This document shows positions 543-12,868 of a stretch of DNA of 64,000 bases, piece after piece. The notes under the pieces were generated by a model that saw only the letters and a list, made by a program, of their open reading frames with translations, was not told the DNA's origin and ran no database searches. Each line of letters begins with the position of its first letter. Within the stretch, counting starts at the first letter, position 1. The DNA is taken from the NCBI GenBank assembly GCA_000092065.1, contig CP000593.1. One strand, written 5' to 3'. The stretch comes from Ostreococcus lucimarinus (Eukaryota). Both the position numbers and the translations under genes were made by a program.

Positions 543-984
543 TCAAGCCCCTTGCCTTCGCACCGCCGGCGCGATGTGTTCCAGCGCCTCCATGCTCACC
601 ACCGAGTTCCCTCGCACGACAATCATCCCCATCGGCGTCTTCTCGCTCGTCGTATCGTTCGTCGCGTCGTCGAGCACGACGTTTAAGAATTGATCGAACC
701 CTCGCAGCGTCCCGACGACGTTCCGGTTCCCATTCAGCCGCAAGCGCAGCTTCTTGTCCATATACCTGGTTGGCGTGCGTCACGGGCGCGTCTGCGGTCA
801 GCGTGGCGCACGCGGCGCGCGTCGGCGCGTCGAGACGGGTAAAAAACGCGTTCGATTGCGAAAAGTCGGCGGCGTTGGATGTCGCGACGATTCGACGTCG
901 CGCGCGAGAGAGAACGCGCGAACGGGCGAGCGCGCGCGAGGAGAGGACGCACTGTTTGAGTTCGGGGATCGCGACGCCGCCCAT
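543..984 (-). CDS. Small nuclear ribonucleoprotein Sm-G (SNRPG/LSm family), two exons: join(953..984, 543..765), intron 766..952
   Basis: Exon 2 (ORF 543..761) reads MDKKLRLRLNGNRNVVGTLRGFDQFLNVVLDD...IVVRGNSVVSMEALE. This aligns along its length with human SmG ([32 protein letters not shown]...VVIRGNSIIMLEALE). Exon 1 sits in another frame of ORF 517..1116 (MGGVAIPELKQ). The GTGCGT donor at 952 and the CCAG acceptor at 766 join the two as MGGVAIPELKQ|YMDKKL, matching human PPELKKFMDKKL. The ORF track misses the intron. Spliced product is 84 aa. Confidence 0.75.
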
Positions 985-1123
985 GGTGTGCGTTCGCTCG
1001 AGTGCGGAGGAGCGTCGGGGAATGATGTCTGCCGCGGGGCGCCTGAGCGCCGAGCGCGCGCGAAGTCCTCGCGAATGAATGTTCGCGTAAAGATCGCTAA
1101 CTACGCGCGCGCTCATTCGCTAA

Positions 1124-4100
1124 TTACATGTACTTTTTGGTCTTGCTCGTCGCGGCGGCGGACTCGGGATCGTCGGGCCAGAAGTGCTTGGGATATCGAC
1201 CGGCGAGCTCTTTGCGAACGTCCGTGCGATAGGCGTTGCGCCAGAACGACGCCAAGTCGCGCGTGACGGCTTGCGTGCGACCGGCCGGGCTGAGGAGGTG
1301 TAATTCGCAGTTGACGCCGCCCACGCGTGGAGTTTCGGTAGTGCCGAAGAACTCTTGGATGCGCGCGGCGACGACGGGAACGTCGCCGTCGTAGTCGACT
1401 TTGGCGTTGGATCCGCTGGGCAGGCGAACGGCGACGGGACAGGCGTCGTCCACGAGCTTGAGATGGTCGTACGTGCAGAAATGCGCCTTGACTAGGGATG
1501 CGACGTCAACTTTCGCGAGATCCGATTTAGACTGCGCGCCAGCGATCCACGGCGCGAGCCATTCACCGGCGGAGCTCAGCAAATTTTCTTCGGAGAGATT
1601 TGGAAACGTGGCGTCCACGCCTGAGCGATGGACATATTCCGCGCGCTTGAGCCACGATGTCGTCGCTTTGTTCAAACCGAAGGCGCTCGCGAGACCCATC
1701 TCGCGAATACCGTCTAACATCGCGCTCACAGTCGCCTCGGGATTGTCTTTCACCGAAAACGGAATCTCTCGAAGCACCAAAGATCCTACCGTCAAGCGCC
1801 TGCGCGCGAAGACTGATTTCGATGCGCTCGCCCAGAACACGTCGTCACTCTCCTTGGACAACGCTTCGTACAGCGCACCACCGCTTTCTAAGCATGCACG
1901 GTCGATCGGTGCCGCCAACCGCACGCGGTCGTTCCTCGATCCCGCGTTTCCCGCGCCATCGCCAGCTAATTCGACGACGACTAAAGTTTCATTCGCCTTG
2001 TCGCCAGAGCGAAGCAGCGCGTCATCCTTGTGCTCACTTCCCACGCTCGCGGCGCCGCCGCCAGAGAGTTGAAACGCCCCTCCTCGGTTTTTACGCGCGG
2101 CGACGCGATCAGGATAGGCGACAGCGAGCAGTAGGCCGGCTTCGCTTTCGCCCGCGCCGCACAAGAACGACCACACCACCGCCGAGGCGTCGCCCTCGCC
2201 GACACCCGGAGCGCAGAAGTCAGGATGCGAAGACGCTAAGCGGCGCAAGTTCCCGAGTAACTGCTCGGCAACTTGTTTCGCTTCGCGAACCGCCCGCTCG
2301 TCGACATTCCAGCTCGCACCGCTCGCGCCGCCCGTCGCGACGCTCACCGCCGCGTTTACGCTCGCGCGTTTGCCGCGAGGCGCGCCTTTGATTTTCTTCC
2401 CGCTCTTCGGGAGTTTGGTACCGATTGGAACGCGCGTCGGTTTCGTCGGGTCGACTTCTGGTTTCTCTTCATCCAAATCGCCCGCGCTTGCGAGTGGATC
2501 TTGACCCCAAAGCGCGCGAAGTCTACACCGAACGTCGAGAGGGGCGTCGCGTCCAGAGATCAAGTCGCGGTCGCCGATGACAGCTGCGAGTTGACACGCG
2601 AGTCGAGCGCTCTCAGCGCCGCGTGACGCGCCAAAAAGTAACATACGCGCCAGTCTTGGGTGCACTGGAAGCTCGGACATGATCGAACCCACGTCGCTAG
2701 GGACGAGTTTGCCTTCCTCCAACGCGCCGAGCTCGCGTAACAACCGTCTCGCCGCGATGAGCGGGCCTTCAGGCGGTGGGTCGAGCCAAGCCATGTCTGC
2801 CCCATCGCCGACGCCCCACGCTGCTAAATCTAACGCCACCGGAGTCAAGTCGGCTTGCAAAATCTCGGGTGTCGTGTCTGGCTGAAGTTTCGCGTTCGAG
2901 GCCTCGCTCCATAAACGATAGCACGTCCCAGGAGCGATGCGCCCGGCTCGCCCGCGCCTTTGATCCGCCGATGCGCGGGAGACACGAGTCGTCTCCAGTC
3001 GCGTCATACCCTTCCGAGCGTCGAACTTGGGCGTCTTGCACAATCCCGAGTCCACGACCACTTTCACGCCGTTGATGGTCAACGAAGACTCGGCGATTGG
3101 AGTGCTCACGACGACGCGACGCGTGCCCGGTTTCGACGGCGCGAGCGCCGCCGCCTGTTCTTCTTGCGATAGCGCGCCGTACAGTGGCAACGCCACGACA
3201 CCGTTCGGAAGCTCCCTTTGCAGATCTCGCACCACGCGATTGATCTCCGCCGCGCCCGGAAGAAAACACAGCACGTCGCCATCTGGGCACGCGCGCACGG
3301 CGTCCTTCACCGCGTTCGTCGTCGCGCGCTCGAGCTCACCCCATCCCGCGCCCGGCGCGCCCAAATAAATCGTCTCCACCGGATACGACCGCCCCTCCGA
3401 CACGATCACCGGCACCTCGGGCCCGTTCTCATCCCTCAACAACGCCGCCACGCGCGCGCCCATCTCCCCGAGCGTCGCGCTCATCACCAACAGTCTCAAA
3501 TCTGGCCGTATCGTCTGTTGCACCTCTCGACACAGCGCCAGCGCGACGTCCGCGTCTAAATTCCTCTCGTGAAACTCATCGAACACCACCAATCCCACGT
3601 CCCGCAGCTCTGGATCGTTTCTCAACCGCCGCGTCAGCACGCCCTCCGTCACCACCTCCACCCGCGTCGCCGCGCTCGCCCTTCGTTCAAATCGCACCTG
3701 ATACCCCACCGTTTCCCCCGCGCGTTCCCCCAACATCTCAGCCATCCGCATCGCCGCCGCTTTCGCCGCTAACCGTCGCGGTTCGAGCACGATCACTTTC
3801 CCCGCGCGTCCGTCGCCGCCGGCGCTCGCCGCCGCCAGCGCCGCCGCCAGCGGCATCACCGTCGTCTTCCCCGCCCCCGGCGGCGCCTGCATCACCGCGC
3901 GCGTCGCGCGCTGTTCGCATCGAACCCAATCGTTCGCCTCGTCAGTCCCGCGTCGCGCTTTCGCGCGCCGTCGACGCACCTCGAGCGCGTCCAAGCACGC
4001 GTCCACGACCGCGTCGATGGGCAACTTCGCGCGCGCTTTTCGCAGCGCCTCGCGCCGCGCGTCGTCTCCCGTCGCGCGCCGCGCGACGTCGCGACGCGCA

Positions 4101-4177
4101 CCGCGCGCGCGCCGCGCGACCGGCGCGCGCGCGTCCGTCGTCGCGACGCGCGTCGCCATGTTGTGTCGTCGTCGCAC
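1124..4177 (-). CDS. ATP-dependent DEAH-box RNA helicase, bacterial HrpB type
   Basis: Walker A APPGAGKTT, then VLEPRRLAA, DEFHER, SAT (LVMSATL), QRRGRAGR. The C-terminal 350 aa run collinear with the E. coli HrpB C-terminal domain (AYPDRVA...RDLASFWRNAYRTDVRKELAGRYPKHFWPDDP...TSKTKKY, versus E. coli GRYPKHVWPDDP...TRRTKKY). The start is M1 or M7 (4159). Confidence 0.85.
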   Translation of the reverse strand: MRRRHNMATRVATTDARAPVARRARGARRDVARRATGDDARREALRKARAKLPIDAVVDACLDALEVRRRRAKARRGTDEANDWVRCEQRATRAVMQAPPGAGKTTVMPLAAALAAASAGGDGRAGKVIVLEPRRLAAKAAAMRMAEMLGERAGETVGYQVRFERRASAATRVEVVTEGVLTRRLRNDPELRDVGLVVFDEFHERNLDADVALALCREVQQTIRPDLRLLVMSATLGEMGARVAALLRDENGPEVPVIVSEGRSYPVETIYLGAPGAGWGELERATTNAVKDAVRACPDGDVLCFLPGAAEINRVVRDLQRELPNGVVALPLYGALSQEEQAAALAPSKPGTRRVVVSTPIAESSLTINGVKVVVDSGLCKTPKFDARKGMTRLETTRVSRASADQRRGRAGRIAPGTCYRLWSEASNAKLQPDTTPEILQADLTPVALDLAAWGVGDGADMAWLDPPPEGPLIAARRLLRELGALEEGKLVPSDVGSIMSELPVHPRLARMLLFGASRGAESARLACQLAAVIGDRDLISGRDAPLDVRCRLRALWGQDPLASAGDLDEEKPEVDPTKPTRVPIGTKLPKSGKKIKGAPRGKRASVNAAVSVATGGASGASWNVDERAVREAKQVAEQLLGNLRRLASSHPDFCAPGVGEGDASAVVWSFLCGAGESEAGLLLAVAYPDRVAARKNRGGAFQLSGGGAASVGSEHKDDALLRSGDKANETLVVVELAGDGAGNAGSRNDRVRLAAPIDRACLESGGALYEALSKESDDVFWASASKSVFARRRLTVGSLVLREIPFSVKDNPEATVSAMLDGIREMGLASAFGLNKATTSWLKRAEYVHRSGVDATFPNLSEENLLSSAGEWLAPWIAGAQSKSDLAKVDVASLVKAHFCTYDHLKLVDDACPVAVRLPSGSNAKVDYDGDVPVVAARIQEFFGTTETPRVGGVNCELHLLSPAGRTQAVTRDLASFWRNAYRTDVRKELAGRYPKHFWPDDPESAAATSKTKKYM

Positions 4178-4197
4178 TGCGCGACGCGACGACCGCC

Positions 4198-4370
4198 ATG
4201 CCGCGCGAGGTCACGCGCGTCGGCGCGTACGCGCTCAAGCACGCGCTCGGGAGAGGGGCGTTCGGGTGGGTGAAGCTCGCGGTGCAGGACGAGACGGGCG
4301 CCAAGGCGGCGATCAAGGTGCGTCGACGCGCGCGGATGGATGGATGGATGCGTCGACGAAACGAAAAGAA

Positions 4371-4407
<37 letters not shown>

Positions 4408-5773
4408 ACGCGCGCGACGCGCCATCGCGACCTCGACCGAATCGCCGAAACCGACGACTGACGGGAATCGACGACGCGCGACGCGAATCGAAACGTAGAT
4501 TTTGGACAGGGAGAATTTGCAACGCCTGGACGAGCAGGACCAGGTGAAGGCGGAGGTGAAGGCGATGGCGGATCTCACGCATCCGTGCATCGTCGACCTG
4601 AAAGAGGTGCTGAGCGATGAACAGAGCGTGTTCATGGTGATGCAGTACTGCCCGGGGGGGGAGGTGTACGATAGGGTGCGAGCGAAGGGGAGTTTCGGCG
4701 AGGCGGAGGCGAGACGACATTTTCAGAGGTTGATACAGGGGGTGGATTTTTGTCATAAGAAACGGATATATCATCGGGATTTGAAACCTGAGAATTTGTT
4801 CTTCGATGAGCGCGGGGAATTGTGCATCGGGGACTTTGGGTTGGCGGCGCTGCGGGCGGACGCGGAGGATACTAATCTTCGCACGATTTGCGGGACGCCG
4901 CACTTCGCGGCGCCGGAGGTGATGGGAGGATCGAGGAGGCTCGTGGGGAATAAGAATTTTAAGACGGTGAACACGAAGACGCGCTCTGATGGATACGATG
5001 GTGGACCCGCGGACGTGTGGAGTTGTGGATGTATCTTGTATTTTATGCTCACGGCGAAGTACCCGTTCGACGGAAAGAATTTCGTGCAACTGCAACTCAT
5101 GGTTCAAAAGACGGAGCCGTATTTCCCGAGCGGTTCGATGTCGCGCTCGTGCGAAAAACTCATCAAAGGCATGCTTGTGAAAGATCCGACGAAGAGAATG
5201 ACGCTCGATCAAGTGATGAAGAACAGTTGGTTCAAGGTTGACTTTGTTCCCGTCAAGGTTGAGCACAACGCCAACACGAATCGGTTCTTCGACGAAGAAG
5301 ACCCGACGCTCGCGCAGTTTATGACGCCGGACGACAAGCTCGTGGTGAAGAAATCATCCATGATGAGCACAAATGAGTCGAAACTTCGCCCGATCAAACA
5401 GCTCAACGCGTTCGAGTTGATCAATATCGCCGCTTTTGATGTGGCAAACATCTTCGACGAGGATGAAAACACGGTGAGCAACGCCACGCGCTTCGTGAGT
5501 AAAGTAGAGATTGATCGCGTGCAAGCCGCCATCATCGAACGGGCCACCGCGCTTGGGAGTGTCGCTCATCGACAGACGCAAGCGCGCGTGGTTTTTGAAT
5601 GTCAAAGCACGGGGCAAGTGGTGACGATGCGAACGTATCAAGTCATCCCAGGCGTGTGCGTGTACGACTTCAGTCGAGACGAAGGCGGTCGCGAACATTT
5701 TCACACTTGGTTCGCAAATCTTCGCGATGAAAATCACGAAGTGGGTAAACTCATACTTAGCGAAGCAGATTAG
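4198..5773 (+). CDS. CBL-interacting (CIPK/SnRK3-type) Ser/Thr protein kinase, two exons: join(4198..4317, 4499..5773), intron 4318..4498
   Basis: Exon 1 carries the glycine loop LGRGAFGWV and the VAIK-type lysine (AAIK). Donor is AAG|GTGCGT and acceptor is aacgtag|ATT, both phase 0, giving ...AAIK|ILDRENLQRLDEQDQVKAEVKAMADLTHPCIV. Exon 2 has HRDLKPENLF, DFGLAA, GTPHFAAPE and a C-terminal NAF/FISL motif (IKQLNAFELINIAAFDVANIFDE). The intron contains an (ACG)n microsatellite. Confidence 0.8.
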
Positions 5774-5815
5774 CGTGGCTCGTTTTATTTTGTAATTATC
5801 AACAGTTCAATAGCG

Positions 5816-6640
5816 CTATCCTTCTCTGAGCAACGAGATGAACGTCGAGATGTCGATGACGGTGATTCTATCGTTCGCCGCCGCTCTCGCGCGTTCACTC
5901 TCGGTGTTATACCCCCAATCCACTAGGAACAATTCCCATTCATCTAAGTCATCCGCCTTGCACACTTTTTCCAGCGTGCTGAGCTTGTCTTCGACGAAAA
6001 TTTTGCGAGGATTCCCGTCGACGCCGAGCGTTCGCAAGACATCCGTCTTCGGGATCCCGCTCACCGTCGTGCTATACATATCATCATCAGCGATCGAAAT
6101 CTTACCCATCCGTTCCAAAATAGCCAGAGCAAATCTTCCTTGCTTCGTGGTCACGATCTTCACCGCCGCGTCGCTTCTCTTTTGCGCCGCGAGCACCGCC
6201 TCGGCGACGCCCGGATACAACGCGTTCGGAGCCAACCACCCGTCAAAGTCGTTCAATATCCAATCATCCCGTATCCTCCCGAACGCCTCCACCATCGTCG
6301 CTCGATCGAGCGACCATTTATCCATGAGTGCTCCCGACAGCCCGTCCCAATCGTTCAGAATCTCCTCGATCGAGTACCCCGGCAACCTTTCCAGCAACGC
6401 GCGCGCCAGCGTGGTGTTTTCGTACCCAGTCTCCACCACCGGTCGCACCGCGCGCAAACCATCGAGCACTCGCTCCTTCTCCGCGCGCGTCGCGTCGGCG
6501 TCGAAGACGTCGGGCCATAGTTCCTCTCCGTGTTTCCACGCGCTGAGCGAAGATTCACCGACGGAGTCGCACACGACGCCGTCAAAGTCGAGGGCGAAGA
6601 TGACCCTCGGTGCGGTTTCTGACGAAGCAAACGTCGCCAT
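5816..6640 (-). CDS. HAD-superfamily hydrolase (haloacid dehalogenase-like)
   Basis: Motif I VIFALDFDGVVCDS (DxDG) sits right after the candidate start MATFASSETAP (ATG 6638-6640). The rest looks like a HAD alpha/beta fold. The ORF 5816..6772 as listed begins at an upstream alternative start and is probably over-extended. Confidence 0.55.
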   Translation of the reverse strand: MATFASSETAPRVIFALDFDGVVCDSVGESSLSAWKHGEELWPDVFDADATRAEKERVLDGLRAVRPVVETGYENTTLARALLERLPGYSIEEILNDWDGLSGALMDKWSLDRATMVEAFGRIRDDWILNDFDGWLAPNALYPGVAEAVLAAQKRSDAAVKIVTTKQGRFALAILERMGKISIADDDMYSTTVSGIPKTDVLRTLGVDGNPRKIFVEDKLSTLEKVCKADDLDEWELFLVDWGYNTESERARAAANDRITVIDISTFISLLREG

Positions 6641-6820
6641 TCGCGCGCGCGGACGCGCGTCGACGCGCGCGGACGCGCGGAAACGCGCGCGGGTAAACGC
6701 TTTGGACGCGATCGATCCGACGGTGGGCATGGATGCGCGCGAGTCGGCGAGTGCGGTGCGTTGTGTTGACAAGGGAGGCGTCCCGGGGACGCAGTCTAAC
6801 CGCCGGCGCCGCTTCGGCGA

Positions 6821-9124
6821 TCAACAGCATCGCTTGCGGTCGAGCGCAGCCTGGGCCTGAGCTTTCTTCTTCGCATCAGCGTCTTGTCTCGCGCGCTCGC
6901 GGGCGAGCAACTCGTCGAGCGACGTCGTCGGGTCGTGCGCGGGACGCTGGGCGCGGTCGTCGCCCGCGCCGTTTTGTTGCGTCCACATCGCGTGGTACTT
7001 GGCCCCGCGTCGGAGGAGTTGATCGTGCGAACCGTATTCGACAACCTTGCCATCCTCTAAAACGGCGATGTTGTCGCAATTTCGCGCCGTGGAAAGCCTG
7101 TGCGCGACGACGATGGTGGTTTTGCCCTTCATCAACACTTCGAGCATTTTAAGAATATCTTTCTCGGTGTTCGTGTCCAGAGCGCTCGTGGCTTCGTCCA
7201 TCAAAACCAAAGGCGAACCCTTGAGCAACGCGCGCGCGATGGCGACGCGTTGCTTTTCCCCGCCGCTAAGTTTTAATCCGCGCTCACCGACGATGGTGTC
7301 GTACGCCTTGGGCATGCGGAGAATGGGACCGTCGATGGCGGCGAGACGCGCCGCTTCGCGAACCTCGGCATCCGACGCGCTCATTTTACCGTAATGAATA
7401 TTGTAATGGATCGTGTCGTTGAACAACACCGTATCTTGGGGAACCACAGCCACGGATTCGCGCAAAGAGCGCAAAGAGACGCTTTGCGCGTTTTGACCGC
7501 CGAGAAAGATGCCCGAAGTTTCGCCGTCGCCATTCTTTTGGGCGTCGTACAGCCTAAACAACAGGCGCAAGAGCGTGCTCTTTCCGCTCCCACTCGCGCC
7601 GACCAACGCGAGAGAACCACCCGCGGGAACAGTCACGGAGAGTCCATCTATAATTTTTCTCCCGTTGTCGTATCCAAAACTCACGTTTCTAAACTCCACC
7701 GAAAGCCCCTCGTCCGGGACGACGAGCGCGGGCGCGTTTTCCAGCTCTCGCACCGCGCTCTTCTCTTCCAACAAATGAAACATCGACGTCATGTCGATCA
7801 AAGACTGTCGCGCTTCGCGATACACCGACCCCAAAAAGTTCAGCGGCACCGATAGTTGGAATAGCAACCCTTGCACCATGACCAAATCCCCTACGGTGAG
7901 GTTTCCCTGCGCGACGCCTTGCGCGGCGAGGAGCATCGCCGCGGAGAGGGACGCCGAAAAAATGGCGTTTTGTCCAAAGTTCAACATCCCTAGCGAGCTG
8001 GCGATTTTCAAATTCGCCTGTTCGACGCCCTTTAAGCTCTCGTCGTAGCGTTTCACCTCGTGTTCCTCGTTGTTGAAGTACTTGACTGTCTCAAAGTTTA
8101 ACAAGGAATCGATCGCCCTCGTGTTGCCTTCGTTTTCCAGCGCGTTCATCTGACGCCTAAACTTTGTTCTCCACTGCGTGCACGCGATCGTGAACGCGGT
8201 GTACGTCGCGATCGTACCTCCGGTTAACATCGCAAACTCTGGTCCGCACTTTACGGATAAAATACCGCTCACGAGGGCGATTTCAAACGCCGTCGGGAAC
8301 ACGTTGAACACCATGCTATTCAACAGGAAACTAATGCCTCGCGTCCCGCGATCGATCGTGCGATTCAACGCCCCCGTCTGCCGATCGAGATGATACTTCA
8401 AATCAAGTTCGTGCAAATGCGCGAACACCCTCCGCGCGATCGCTCGTATCGCCCCCTGACTCACCTTGGCGAACGTCGCGTTTCTCAGTTCGTTCGCCAG
8501 GCTCGCCGACGCTCGCAGCGCCCCGTACCCGACCAACATCACCGCCGGCGTCGCCGCGATCGCCGTCATCGGCAGGTGCGTCATCGCCTCCACCCCACTC
8601 GTCGCCATCCCGGCCTGCGCGCTCAGCCCATCGATCGCGTACTTGAACGCGAACGGCACGCTCACGTTCGCCGCCTTGCTCGCCGCGAGCAGCGCCATCG
8701 CGCCCGCCACCCGTCGCTTCCCCGCCGGGTTCTCGTCGCTCCACAGGTACCCACCCATCGTTCGCAGTATTCCGAAATCGATGTCATCCGCGCTCGTCGC
8801 CGCCGTCGTCGTCGTCGCCGCCGTCGTCGGCGTCGCCGCCGTCGTCTCGCGCTTCGTCGTCGCCGCCGCGCGTCCGTCCTCCGTCCTCGCGTCGTCTCCC
8901 GCGCGCGCGCTCGTCGACGCGCGCGCGCTCGACCGCGCGCGCGCGCCCGCATCGCTCGCGAACGCCCGCGCGCGCGCGACGCGCGTCTCCCGCGCGCGCG
9001 CGCGCTCGACCGCGCGCGCCGTCGTCGCGACCGGCGCGCGTCCCCATCCCTCGCGCGCGCCGGCGCCTCGCGCGATCGCGCGCGCGACCGCGCGCGCGCG
9101 CGACCGCGCGACCGACGTCGCCAT
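6821..9124 (-). CDS. ABC transporter, B-family half transporter of the mitochondrial ATM1/ABCB7 type (TMD-NBD)
   Basis: There are six predicted TM helices. The NBD has [11 protein letters not shown] (Walker A), [16 protein letters not shown] (signature) and [12 protein letters not shown] (Walker B). The N-terminal 150 aa are R/A-rich and presequence-like ([13 protein letters not shown]...). The listed ORF runs up to 10153 as an R/S/P-rich low-complexity artefact. The chosen start is the ATG at 9122-9124. Confidence 0.8.
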
Positions 9125-9201
9125 GCCGCGCGCGTCGGCGCGGGCGAGCGCGCGACGACGCGCGCGCGTCACAATCGCGCGCGGATTCGAAATCGAATCC
9201 A

Positions 9202-10086
9202 ATGTCGGAGCGACGCGCGGCGAAGCGCGCGCGCGACGACGCGTCGACGGCCGACGACGACGACGACGGCGCGTGTGGACTGTGCGCGCGCGCGCTCGCG
9301 ACGGCGCGCGGCGACGGCGCCGACGACGGCGCGCGCGCGACGCTGCCGGGAACGCCGGTGCGCGCGAAAGCGCGACGGCGGTTTCGGTCGACGACGACGC
9401 CGGAGGCGGGACGAATCTGCGGCGCGTGCTACCAGCGAGAGTACCGCGCGAGGTGCCGCGCGCGGGCGAGCGCGGCGCGGACGTGCGCGCGGTGCGGGGA
9501 GGGAAACGCGTCGGGACGGTGGGCGAGGAGTCACGCGCCGCCGACGAAGGGAGAGACGGTGTGCCCGAAATGCTACGAGAGCGAACGCCGGGCGCGAACG
9601 GTGGCGACGGGAGGGCGAGGGGACGGTGAGCGGTGCGCGCGGTGCGAGAAGATCGGGCCGGGGAGCGAGAAGACGTACTGGTACAGGGCGGAGTTCGGCG
9701 AGCGGCGGGGAAAGCGCGTGTGCCAGGCGTGCCACAAGTTGGATTATCGCGAGAGGCTGAACGCGGATCCGAGCGTGTTTTGCCGTGGGTGCGAGAAGAC
9801 GGCGCTGGTGACGAATTATTGGCGGAGAATCGTCGGCGAGAACGGCGCGACGGCGGGGCACTGGTGCGACGCGTGTTACAAGAAGGACCGTCTGCGACGC
9901 ATGAACGCGGATCCGAGCGTGACGTGCGCGACGTGCGAGGCGACGACGAGCGGTGGACCGGAGTGGCGGCGCAAGGGTGACGGGTACGTCTGTCGCACGT
10001 GCGTGAGCAAGGAGCGCACGCGCGCGAACCGCCGCGCTCGCGGAGAAGCGAACCGAGACGGAAATCGAGAAGGAGACGCCGCGTAG
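9202..10086 (+). CDS. Zinc-finger protein with four tandem GATA-type (C-x2-C-x17-25-C-x2-C) fingers
   Basis: The four units are [95 protein letters not shown] and [26 protein letters not shown]. The last is closest to the GATA consensus (C-x2-C-x-T-x-T-x-W-R-R-x-G-x3-C-x2-C). Cys codons are disfavoured in GC-rich sequence, so the periodicity is unlikely to be random. The gene is wedged between the ABC start (9124, opposite strand) and the RNase II start (10118). Confidence 0.45.
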
Positions 10087-10117
10087 AGACGACGCGCACG
10101 AATGGACGAATGGAAAG

Positions 10118-12868
10118 ATGCACGAGCGATACGAATCGCGCGTCGTAGAACACACCGCCGCTCTTCGCGAGCAGAAAGCCCTCGCGAAGTTCCTAGCGCT
10201 TTTTAGTCACGTAGCCGTCAACTTTCGAGCGACGACGACTCAACCTCACAGCGCGACGCCGGTCGCGTCATGCCACCGCGCGCGCGCGCGATCCCTCACC
10301 CTAAAACCGAATCCGATCCGTTTGATCTCGCCGACGTCGCGAGCGCGCTCCAGGTGCGCGCGCGAGCGCTCGTTTTCTCAAGCTCAACTGTCCGCGCAAC
10401 GACCCGACTCGACGACTGACGACGAAACGACGGCGACTCGCGCGCAGGATGACGCGCGCGCGCACGTCGGTGAGTTCGTGGTGAACGAGTTCAAGCGGCA
10501 CGAAGCGTACGTGCGCGTGGAAGGGCTGCCGCTGGACGTCAAGTGCGAGGGCTGGGAGCGTCAGGGCAGAAGCGTGCACGGCGACCGCGTGCGAGTGGTA
10601 ATCGACGCGTGCGATCGCTGGGAGCGCGTCGTGGGGACTAAAGGCGAGATTTCAGACGAAGAGAGAGCGTTCGTAAGCGTAGAGGCGCTCGCATCGGTGT
10701 GTCGACGAGGGTGGCGACCGACGGGACGCGTCGTCCCGGATGCGCCGGTGACGCCGGCGACGCGGCGCTCGAGGATGGTCGGGAGGGTAGAAGTCCAAGA
10801 CGGCGGCGCGTCGCTCACATTCGTGCCCTTGGATCCAAAGTTGCCGAAGGGCCGCGTTTCTGAGTTTAGCGTGCCGAAGTCGTTACAGAAGACGCTGGCG
10901 TCGGGGGCGGAGGATGTCGAGGACGTCTTCGTGGCGGTGCGACTTAGAAAGTGGAGCAAAGGGATGTCGATGCCGATGATGGACATCATCGAGGTCGTGG
11001 GAAAAGGAAGTATGGGTGATGATTTAGATTTCATGACGAAAGTCATCGTCGCCGAGCACGGCATAGAGAGCGGAGATTTTAGCGCGGATGCGACGGCGTG
11101 TTTACCAAAGGTCAAAGTCGGCGATCACTGGAAAATTCCACCCGAGGAGATGAAACGGCGGGTGAATTTTAGGGAAAAGCTCGTTTTTAGCATAGACCCA
11201 CCGACGGCGCGAGATTTGGACGATGCGCTGAGCGTCCAAGTTTTGCCCGATGGTTGTCTAAACGTCGGCGTGCACATCGCCGACGTGTCACACTTCGTCA
11301 AGCCTGACACGCCGCTCGACGCCGAGGCGAGAGAACGAGGCACCACGACGTATCTCGTGCACACCATTTTTCCAATGTTGCCTAGACTTTTGTGCGAAAA
11401 TCTGTGCTCACTCAATCCTGGCGTTGAAAGATTAACGTTTTCGGTGGAATGGAAGATGACGCGTGGTGGCGTTGTGAAGAATGTCTCGTTCAAGCGTGGC
11501 GTGATAAAGAGCGCTGCGAAGCTGTCATACATTCACGTTCAAAATGTGATCGATGCTGGGTCGGACGTGAACAAAGCGAAAGAGGCACTAGATGATGTGA
11601 AGTTTTCAGGCGCGTACACCGCTGAAGACGTCATCGAGAGCATTTCAATCTTGAACGCAGCTGCGAAAGCGATGCGCAAGAAGAGATTTGAAGCCGGCGC
11701 TGTTCGATTGGATCAACCAAAGGTTGGTTTTGAGCTTAACGATGACTACGAGCCCGTGGGAGCTGCACCTTACGTCATTCGCGACAGCAATCGTCTTGTC
11801 GAGGAGTACATGCTACTCGCCAATATGTACGTCGCCGAGTTCATAGCCGAGATTTTCCCATCGCACGCCATGCTTCGATGCCATCCGCCGCCGAACGAAC
11901 GGAAGCTCATGGAGCTATCCACGTTCGCCAGCGAGCACGATATCGATATCGACATATCATCTTCGAAACGTCTTCACGACAGTTTGCGAGCAATAGCGCG
12001 CGACTCGCAAGATTTGTTTGACATCGTGCAGCTGCTCGCTACAAAGCCCATGCAACTGGCGAAATACTTTTGTACGGGGAGCGTGGACGAAGAGCAATGG
12101 CGGCATTACGCTCTCGCCGTTCCTTATTACACGCACTTTACGTCGCCTATTCGTCGATATCCGGATATCATTGTGCATCGTCTACTCGCAGCGGCGCTCG
12201 AGCACGCTGAGAGACAAGGGAAATCCAGTGAGCGAGACGTCGTAGAGAAACACAGTCTCATGACGCCGGAAATCTGTAGCGACGTCGCTGATCACTGCAA
12301 CGAGCGGAAACTCGCGGCGAAGTACGCCCAAGAGCGGAGTCAGCACTTGTTTCTCTGCAAATATCTGCAGAAAAATCCGGTCATCGCGCGTGCGATTGTA
12401 AGGCAACTCGGGCAGCAATACGTCGTCGCCTATCTCCCGGCGTTTGGATTCGAAATCAAAATTTACCTCGAAAAGCAGCGTCACGTGAAAGTCACACAAA
12501 AGGGATTTTCAAAGGGTCAATCATTGACGAAAGAATTAGACGTGACGTTAGACGTCCGTAAAGAGTGCGAAGAGGCCGCGAAAATCGCCGCTGCGGGTGC
12601 CGCCGCACTCGAGATTTTAGATCGATCGACGTACAAGAGCACGCTCAAGCACGCCAGAGGTTTGCGCGGGCGATGCCTCAATACTACGGAAGAGCAAGAG
12701 ACGTTCATAGATGATGCGGTCATGGACGACGCGCTGGTTTTACCTACTTCGATCAAGGCGCTGGATAAGATGCCTGTGATTTTATGCGTGCACAAAGAGT
12801 CGACAATTAAGTTTGAGATTTACGGCCACGTCCTCTTCTCAAATCCATTTTACACAGCTTTCGCTTAG
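10118..12868 (+). CDS. RNase II/RNB-family 3'-5' exoribonuclease, DIS3L2/SOV-like (no PIN domain)
   Basis: Cold-shock domains ([16 protein letters not shown]...[10 protein letters not shown]). The RNB catalytic motif [20 protein letters not shown]-terminal S1-like domain. No N-terminal PIN domain, so DIS3L2-type rather than Rrp44. Confidence 0.8.

Follow-up and report, generated by a model that had tools for sequence, protein, structure and literature searches.

General features of the HrpB gene

We analysed a 64,000-nt stretch of the Ostreococcus lucimarinus genome (contig CP000593.1, assembly GCA_000092065.1; this whole stretch is called the window below), in which an open reading frame (ORF) encodes a homologue of the bacterial helicase HrpB. 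The ORF is located on the minus strand at 1124..4177 and has 1,017 codons if a GTG is taken as the start. The true start is the ATG at 4159 (codon 7), not the GTG at 4177, and translation from this ATG straight through the ORF gave a product of 1,011 aa, identical in length to database entry P0121, which is named "ATP-dependent helicase HrpB" in sources including NCBI and JGI.

NCBI, UniProt and JGI already list the exact window protein and its orthologues under the name HrpB, so the presence of the gene is not new. We found no paper on HrpB in green algae, and in the literature found a eukaryotic HrpB appeared only as a one-line mention for Paulinella. As far as we found, neither the single clade of chlorophytes nor the conserved locus has been described before, nor have the intron and the basic motif that are specific to certain lineages; these points are incremental to the annotation.

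Domains, motifs and predicted structure

Judged by its domains, the predicted product is a complete HrpB-family DExH-box NTPase. Pfam detected a DEAD domain at residues 93-237, a Helicase_C domain at 296-414 and the HrpB_C domain at 873-1004, the last with an E value of 6.7e-41 (140 bits against a cut-off of 25) over profile positions 1-133 of 133. The NCBIfam equivalog model of HrpB, TIGR01970, scored 774.4 bits against a cut-off of 546.15. The narrower enterobacterial model NF008662 remained below its cut-off (693 vs 1,053), and the protein was far below the cut-offs of the NCBIfam HrpA models. The HrpB connector between the OB and C-terminal domains (CON_HrpB, PF24473) was matched weakly in Pfam, with 18.8 bits for a cut-off of 27; this region was modelled with high confidence and lies inside the structure alignment to E. 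coli HrpB described below.

Through a phmmer search of the PDB, the best match was E. coli HrpB (6heg/6eud, E 2e-147) in two blocks, residues 91-544 and 677-1016. The alignment extends to residue 808 of the 809 in the E. coli protein and covers the C-terminal GRYPKHFWPDDP...TSKTKKY, so that the collinearity claimed in the original prediction, including the family-specific C-terminal domain, is borne out. The catalytic motifs APPGAGKTT (92-100), DEFHER (194-199), SAT (227-229) and QRRGRAGR (400-407) are all intact; motifs I, II, III and VI were invariant in an alignment of 77 sequences, together with about 90 further columns.

The AlphaFold2 (AF2) model built from 77 homologues had a mean predicted local distance difference test (pLDDT) score of 88 and a predicted template modelling score of 0.83. 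Foldseek aligned this model to 6eud over 966 columns (E 2.6e-68) and to 6heg (E 2.3e-62), and the next-best structures were HrpA and Prp2, at about 1e-44. The domain series comprises RecA1, RecA2, winged-helix, helical-bundle and OB domains, followed by a putative HrpB connector and the C-terminal domain that only HrpB has.

Bacterial HrpB (E. coli b0148, 6EUD/6HEG; P. aeruginosa PA3961; X. citri) has the same domain order from the LPI... helix to the last residues, and shares motifs I, II (DEFHER), III and VI and the C-terminal domain with the window protein. The identity is 42% to the E. coli protein and 45-50% to many of the other HrpBs from bacteria. In contrast to these, the window copy is nuclear and intron-bearing; its N-terminus is extended by a basic stretch of 45 residues, and its helical bundle contains a disordered basic loop.

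The eukaryotic DEAH/RHA helicases (Prp2, Prp16, Prp22, Prp43/DHX15, DHX8 and DHX37) and HrpA have the RecA1-RecA2-winged-helix-helical-bundle-OB core in common with the window protein and are without the HrpB C-terminal domain, as had been predicted for the eukaryotic members. They matched only residues ~95-527 (E 1e-60 to 1e-74), with about half the score of HrpB, and shared a structural core of ~750 columns, while alignments of ~960 columns were reached by HrpB structures only. Pfam models HA2 and OB_NTP_bind showed no match to the window protein at E≤0.01. Considering these results and the position of the gene among bacterial HrpBs in the trees below, an ordinary eukaryotic DHX helicase was rejected. 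A pseudogene was also considered and rejected.

An intron within the open reading frame

In the alignment of homologues (A1), 23 extra residues (61-83) just before motif I were found in the window protein only. They are encoded by a 69-nt segment, 3911-3979, which opens with GTGCGTCGAC, contains ACTGACG 30 nt before its end and closes with AG. The segment is in frame and stop-free, with the read-through peptide "VRRRRAKARRGTDEANDWVRCEQ", and the AF2 pLDDT across these residues was ~51.

Through comparison with the sister Ostreococcus lineages, we found GT..AG segments at the same position. In one (L005), a 95-nt segment at 5253-5347 follows the same ...ALE codon and shifts the frame; in another (L091), a 144-nt segment at 2929-3072 contains an in-frame TGA and the motif ACTGACG. 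Excision of these segments gave stop-free proteins of 1,004 and 1,003 aa with motif I restored, and after excision the distance from the junction to APPGAGKT was exactly eight residues in all species compared. The HrpB gene of O. tauri is contiguous, without a segment at that position.

The 181-nt intron of the neighbouring kinase gene related to CIPK has the same 5′ site, GTGCGTCGAC, and the same branch motif ACTGACG as the HrpB segment. The splice motifs alone prove nothing, as GTGCGT and GTGCGTCGAC did not exceed, in the window, the frequency expected under a first-order Markov model; because they are not statistically unusual in GC-rich DNA, it is the cross-species comparison on which the intron call depends. 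From this comparison, 3911-3979 is very probably a phase-0 spliceosomal intron whose reading frame is open by chance. With an intron inside the stop-free ORF, the mature protein is therefore most probably about 988 aa and not 1,011. The corrected annotation would start at ATG 4159, remove the 69-nt in-frame intron 3911-3979 and encode about 988 aa, and the gene serves as an example of an ORF that conceals an intron. The coordinates of the features are listed in Table 1.

Prokaryote-style gene calls in public metagenome data include N-terminally truncated HrpB proteins with no motif I (e.g. P0002, P0003 and P0007). The truncation arises because introns of the L005 and L091 type break the frame.

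Table 1. Position of the HrpB gene parts and of the two adjoining genes in the window.
Feature	Position	Strand	Description and basis
HrpB exon 1	3980..4159	-	ATG at 4159 to ...LDALE
Probable phase-0 spliceosomal intron, 69 nt	3911..3979	-	Cross-species comparison
HrpB exon 2	1124..3910	-	Motif I through C-terminal domain; stop codon 1124-1126; ORF, junction translation and alignments
N-terminal extension, 45 residues	4025..4159	-	Basic, Ala/Arg-rich, candidate organelle presequence, in eukaryotic copies only; composition and bacterial comparison
RecA1 domain	3467..3901	-	Pfam DEAD; motif I APPGAGKTT 3860-3886, motif II DEFHER 3563-3580, motif III SAT 3473-3481
RecA2 domain	2936..3292	-	Pfam Helicase_C; motif VI QRRGRAGR 2939-2962
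K/G-rich insertion, residues ~551-620	2300..2509	-	Mamiellophyceae-specific, helical-bundle region; core TRVPIGTKLPKSGKKIKGAPRGKRA at 2363-2437
HrpB-specific C-terminal domain (HrpB_C, PF08482)	1166..1561	-	Ends in GRYPKHFWPDDP; Pfam, E. coli alignment and structure alignment
CIPK/SnRK3-like protein kinase	4198..5773	+	Divergent neighbour; 181-nt intron 4318-4498; ATG 38 bp from the HrpB ATG
LSM/Sm-like gene	543..761	-	Directly downstream of HrpB; belongs to the conserved neighbourhood

Conserved neighbourhood of the gene

The genes on both sides of HrpB are eukaryotic, in agreement with the nuclear context that had been predicted. They include CIPK-like and cGMP-dependent-type Ser/Thr kinases, a HAD hydrolase, an ATM-type ABC half-transporter, a Dis3-like RNB nuclease, a eukaryote-type S-adenosylmethionine decarboxylase, a Vps35-like protein, a GT10 fucosyltransferase and an LSM protein. 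The GC content at third codon positions was 0.73 in HrpB and 0.65-0.82 in the neighbouring genes.

The block LSM-HrpB-kinase-HAD-ABC(ATM)-RNB (543-12868 in the window) was found again in O. tauri (L090), in the two sister Ostreococcus lineages and in a distant Mamiellophyceae group (L002-L004). The O. tauri orthologue, with 69% identity the nearest among the named ones, is located on a chromosome-scale contig of 573 kb. HrpB identity across the syntenic loci (L002, L003/L004, L005, L090 and L091) ranged from 41 to 80%, and in the distant group the same six-gene block was kept with HrpB only ~41% identical. LSM adjoins HrpB in all related loci, with a different orientation in the distant group, and the head-to-head pair of HrpB and kinase is kept in L002-L005, L090 and L091. 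As the start codons of this pair (4159 and 4198) diverge with a spacing of 38 bp, their promoters or 5′ untranslated regions must overlap.

Because the gene order is shared across Mamiellophyceae genera, HrpB has been at this nuclear locus since before these genera split, and it has been inherited vertically.

The nearest characterised relatives of the protein are bacterial, and the family was described as bacterial (PMC7237152), so we considered whether the assembly contains contaminant bacterial DNA here, or whether the transfer is so recent that the gene does not yet function. Both are refuted. The gene lies on a single contig between eukaryotic genes, has a third-position GC content like theirs, carries the spliceosomal intron and keeps its catalytic residues invariant, and at least five further assemblies of Mamiellophyceae show the same neighbourhood, among them that of O. 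tauri with its chromosome-scale contig. Base composition, intron and gene order thus agree with the original prediction that the matching codon style spoke against recent contamination.

Distribution in green algae

Homologues were searched with the window protein, a trebouxiophyte homologue and a profile of core-chlorophyte sequences as queries, and the best 120 matches per search were considered. The named eukaryotic homologues among them belonged to Chlorophyta only, in four classes: Mamiellophyceae (Ostreococcus), Chlorodendrophyceae (Tetraselmis), Trebouxiophyceae (Myrmecia) and Chlorophyceae (Raphidocelis, Monoraphidium, Tetradesmus, Scenedesmus, Edaphochlamys, Chlamydomonas eustigma, Chlamydomonas sp. 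UWO241, Volvox africanus, Dunaliella and Sanguina). A relative of 883 residues (P0361/P0462) also sits among eukaryotic genes. In the same best-120 lists, no streptophyte, red-algal or other eukaryotic homologue was found above bacterial scores, a result that is provisional. The check across Archaeplastida proposed in the original prediction thus gave named homologues in four classes of Chlorophyta and, among the best 120 matches, nothing above bacterial scores for streptophytes and red algae.

The green-algal proteins named "ATP-dependent helicase HrpB" (from O. tauri, Monoraphidium neglectum, Tetradesmus obliquus, Volvox africanus and others) are orthologues with the same architecture and an N-terminal extension, and they fall in one phylogenetic group. 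The O. tauri gene has the same neighbourhood as the window gene but is without the intron. The core chlorophyte HrpBs are without the basic loop; instead they contain low-complexity inserts, either acidic or rich in Gly, and C-terminal tails.

One protein of Sanguina aurantia (P0498, 2,088 aa) showed the HrpB domains fused to a copper monooxygenase and a DOMON domain (PF01082, PF03712 and PF03351). This is probably a merged gene model and not a real fusion.

Phylogeny and origin

Neighbour-joining trees were calculated from corrected p-distances over 780 trimmed columns with 233-249 sequences, made up of the eukaryotic ones, 145 that represent clusters at 50% identity, and those of about 65 named bacteria. 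All eukaryotic HrpBs formed one group, with bootstrap values of 78-80% (25 sequences) and 94% (35 sequences), and the Mamiellophyceae within it reached 100%. The group was nested among bacterial HrpBs and did not fall in an ordinary DHX clade. The phylogeny proposed in the original prediction, run here by neighbour-joining, therefore places the gene with HrpB, as does the highly significant C-terminal profile match.

Because the sequences of four chlorophyte classes form one group (bootstrap 94%), the gene would have entered before the chlorophyte radiation, and one ancient acquisition is the simplest reading of the trees. It may have entered the green-algal lineage a single time, by transfer from a bacterium, before the chlorophytes diversified. 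The gene has since taken on traits of a eukaryotic one: part of the genus has a spliceosomal intron in it, its product is extended by a basic N-terminal stretch, and a disordered basic loop is confined to one lineage.

No bacterial group was found as sister above 19% bootstrap in these trees, and no donor can be named. Next to the algae in the replicates were Rhizobiales or other alphaproteobacteria (15%), Planctomycetes (13%) and Euzebya (11%), and by raw score Azospirillaceae, Longimicrobium and Paenibacillus were about equally close to the algal HrpB. Cyanobacteria were sampled minimally: in a GTDB genome scan of at least 80 loci, which was not a ranked sample of all bacteria, one cyanobacterium-labelled HrpB was obtained (L038, from a metagenome-assembled genome of Vulcanococcus limneticus, contig CALRIT020000005.1). 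Its distance to the algae was 1.07, compared with 1.08 for E. coli, and it clustered with Bacteroidota, so that with this one cyanobacterium-labelled sequence a sister relation to cyanobacterial homologues was not obtained.

These data bear on a second origin, in which the gene was inherited from the cyanobacterial ancestor of the plastid or the alphaproteobacterial ancestor of the mitochondrion and was lost in most other eukaryotes. The bacteria with the best raw scores include many Rhodospirillales (Azospirillum, Indioceanicola, Magnetospirillum and Skermanella), and the subtree adjacent to the algae often contained Rhizobiales or other alphaproteobacteria, as such a descent would lead one to expect. 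The alphaproteobacterial adjacency reached at most 15-19% bootstrap, however, with Longimicrobium, Paenibacillus, Planctomycetes and Euzebya competing, and the cyanobacterium-labelled sequence was as distant as E. coli. The endosymbiotic origin also needs many independent losses, because no non-chlorophyte eukaryote exceeded bacterial scores in the best 120 matches. We regard it as improbable, and this option of the original prediction found no support.

Horizontal transfer fits the data better than inheritance through plastid or mitochondrion. The horizontal acquisition that had been proposed as the other option therefore stands, but as an old event of the chlorophytes as a single group, neither recent nor specific to Ostreococcus. 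Two points count against an early single transfer: the trees were neighbour-joining and not maximum likelihood, and the absence from non-chlorophyte eukaryotes is read from the best-120 lists and is provisional.

The one cyanobacterium-labelled sequence (L038) was nearest to sequences from metagenome-assembled genomes labelled Bifidobacterium and Flavobacterium, and to Cyclobacteriaceae (distance 0.33-0.45), which suggests contigs binned to the wrong genome, or horizontal transfer, in these assemblies. In viral contigs of IMG/VR, we found four partial HrpB-like matches (L086-L089) with 39-60% identity over the helicase core, none near the algal clade. A virus-borne origin was dropped, as these four partial matches were the only ones and none was close.

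N-terminal extension

The algal copies with a complete N-terminus contain 45-182 residues before the conserved LPI helix, compared with 4-8 in four tabulated bacterial sequences. In the window protein the extension has 45 residues, of which 15 are Arg or Lys and 13 are Ala, against 5 Asp or Glu. The start codon of the window gene is the only ATG up to the LPI helix, and since no later one keeps the first conserved helix, the extension has to be part of the translated product. Among the Ostreococcus lineages the extension is 33-39% identical and the rest of the protein 72-79%, a divergence about twice as fast, and the common layout is an Arg-rich stretch followed by a short acidic patch and then the conserved fold.

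A basic and fast-evolving extension of this kind suggests a candidate chloroplast or mitochondrial presequence, and organelle targeting of the algal HrpB is plausible from its composition. A published parallel is the nuclear hrpB of the photosynthetic eukaryote Paulinella micropora KR01, which bears a chromatophore-targeting peptide (PMC7826189). The likeness is drawn from the published description only, and Paulinella differs in that its host lineage is unrelated and its organelle much younger.

Several features weigh against organelle targeting, or limit what can be said of it. Acidic residues are present within the extension (D9, D24 and D31-32), and several metagenomic algal homologues seem to be without it, though their gene models are probably truncated. 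The extension also does not distinguish the chloroplast from the mitochondrion, and the basic motif of the insertion described below (KKIK, KRSKKMKK) resembles a nuclear localisation signal.

K/G-rich insertion

The gap between the two alignment blocks of E. coli HrpB corresponds to a K/G-rich insertion of about 65-70 residues. It was absent from every bacterial sequence in A1, so that the insertion described in the original prediction as missing from bacterial HrpB is real, and it was absent from the core chlorophytes as well. Its pLDDT was 46-67, and the loop is predicted to be disordered.

The motif RVP[IV]x[TA]K[IL]...KxKxAP[KR]G[KR] was detected in 89 of the 548 fetched proteins, all from Mamiellophyceae, and is kept in all groups of this class. 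The conserved basic motif could be an RNA- or partner-binding element, considering its composition and conservation.

Near the insertion site, core chlorophytes have different inserts, acidic or Gly-rich. In four chlorophycean proteins (P0206, P0207, P0208 and P0269), long acidic or Gly-rich inserts and Gly/Lys-rich C-terminal tails were found (A1 columns ~900-1000 and 1440-1500). Because the chlorophycean inserts are unrelated to the Mamiellophyceae loop, different algal classes have independently expanded the same surface region.

Possible function and location

Bacterial HrpB is an RNA-stimulated NTPase whose auxiliary and C-terminal domains discriminate structured RNAs (PMC7237152). This activity was reported for the E. 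coli and P. aeruginosa proteins only (PMC7237152), and in Xanthomonas citri HrpB affects motility and biofilm formation (PMC7237152, PMC4804567). The same chemistry is expected, by analogy, for the algal protein, because all catalytic and C-terminal residues are conserved.

Considering the extension together with this chemistry, HrpB is rather probably imported into an organelle, where it would remodel organellar RNA or ribonucleoprotein. The extension would then be a presequence, cleaved on import into chloroplast or mitochondrion; inside, an RNA-stimulated NTPase may remodel structured RNA or RNA-protein complexes, for example in ribosome assembly or transcript processing. What speaks against this proposal is that no HrpB has been shown to unwind and that the cellular role in E. 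coli and P. aeruginosa is unknown (PMC7237152); because neither unwinding nor a bacterial role is established, the function proposed for the algae is an analogy.

The alternative is a domesticated HrpB that works in the cytosol or in the nucleus or nucleolus, on a substrate such as pre-rRNA, with the loop as a nuclear localisation signal or RNA-binding arm and the extension as a disordered tail. The insertion core KLPKSGKKIKGAPRGKR, and SKRSKKMKKAPKGKK in the other genus group, has a K-K/R-x-K/R pattern, and this core is conserved across Mamiellophyceae despite an overall identity of 41-55%; the acidic residues of the window extension, and the long helix that AF2 predicts for residues 17-44, also favour such a location. 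However, the basic loop is present in Mamiellophyceae only, whereas the extension is common to the algal copies with a complete N-terminus, and a rapidly diverging, net positive extension rich in Arg, Ala, Ser and Thr is typical of presequences. Moreover, a full set of DHX helicases already serves nuclear RNA in eukaryotes. We consider the cytosolic or nuclear location unlikely, though less so than the endosymbiotic origin above.

For organelle import combined with the origin favoured above, we might tentatively speculate that a single ancient, non-cyanobacterial transfer was turned into an organelle-imported RNA remodeller, to which Mamiellophyceae added a conserved basic docking motif; this full account, with all its parts, is possible but less probable than not.

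A nuclear HrpB throughout the lineage indicates a gene useful enough to persist for many hundreds of millions of years after entering a eukaryote. If chloroplast or mitochondrion is the destination of the protein, the search for its target would narrow to the few RNAs of that organelle, and, given the small organelle transcriptomes and gene targeting in O. tauri, the algal gene could show on which RNAs HrpB naturally acts. As an old bacterial gene domesticated by a eukaryote, it has a modest chance of helping to explain the role of HrpB, which is unclear in bacteria though the enzyme is widespread there.

Other features of the window

The intron of the divergent kinase gene (4318-4498, plus strand) contains a (GAC)n run. 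In the long ORF at 6821-10153 (minus strand), an Arg/Ser/Pro-rich extension of ~400 codons upstream of the ABC transporter is a spurious open frame. Very long spurious open frames of this kind occur on both strands of the window through its high GC content, and because of them ORF length is a poor guide to gene starts in this region.

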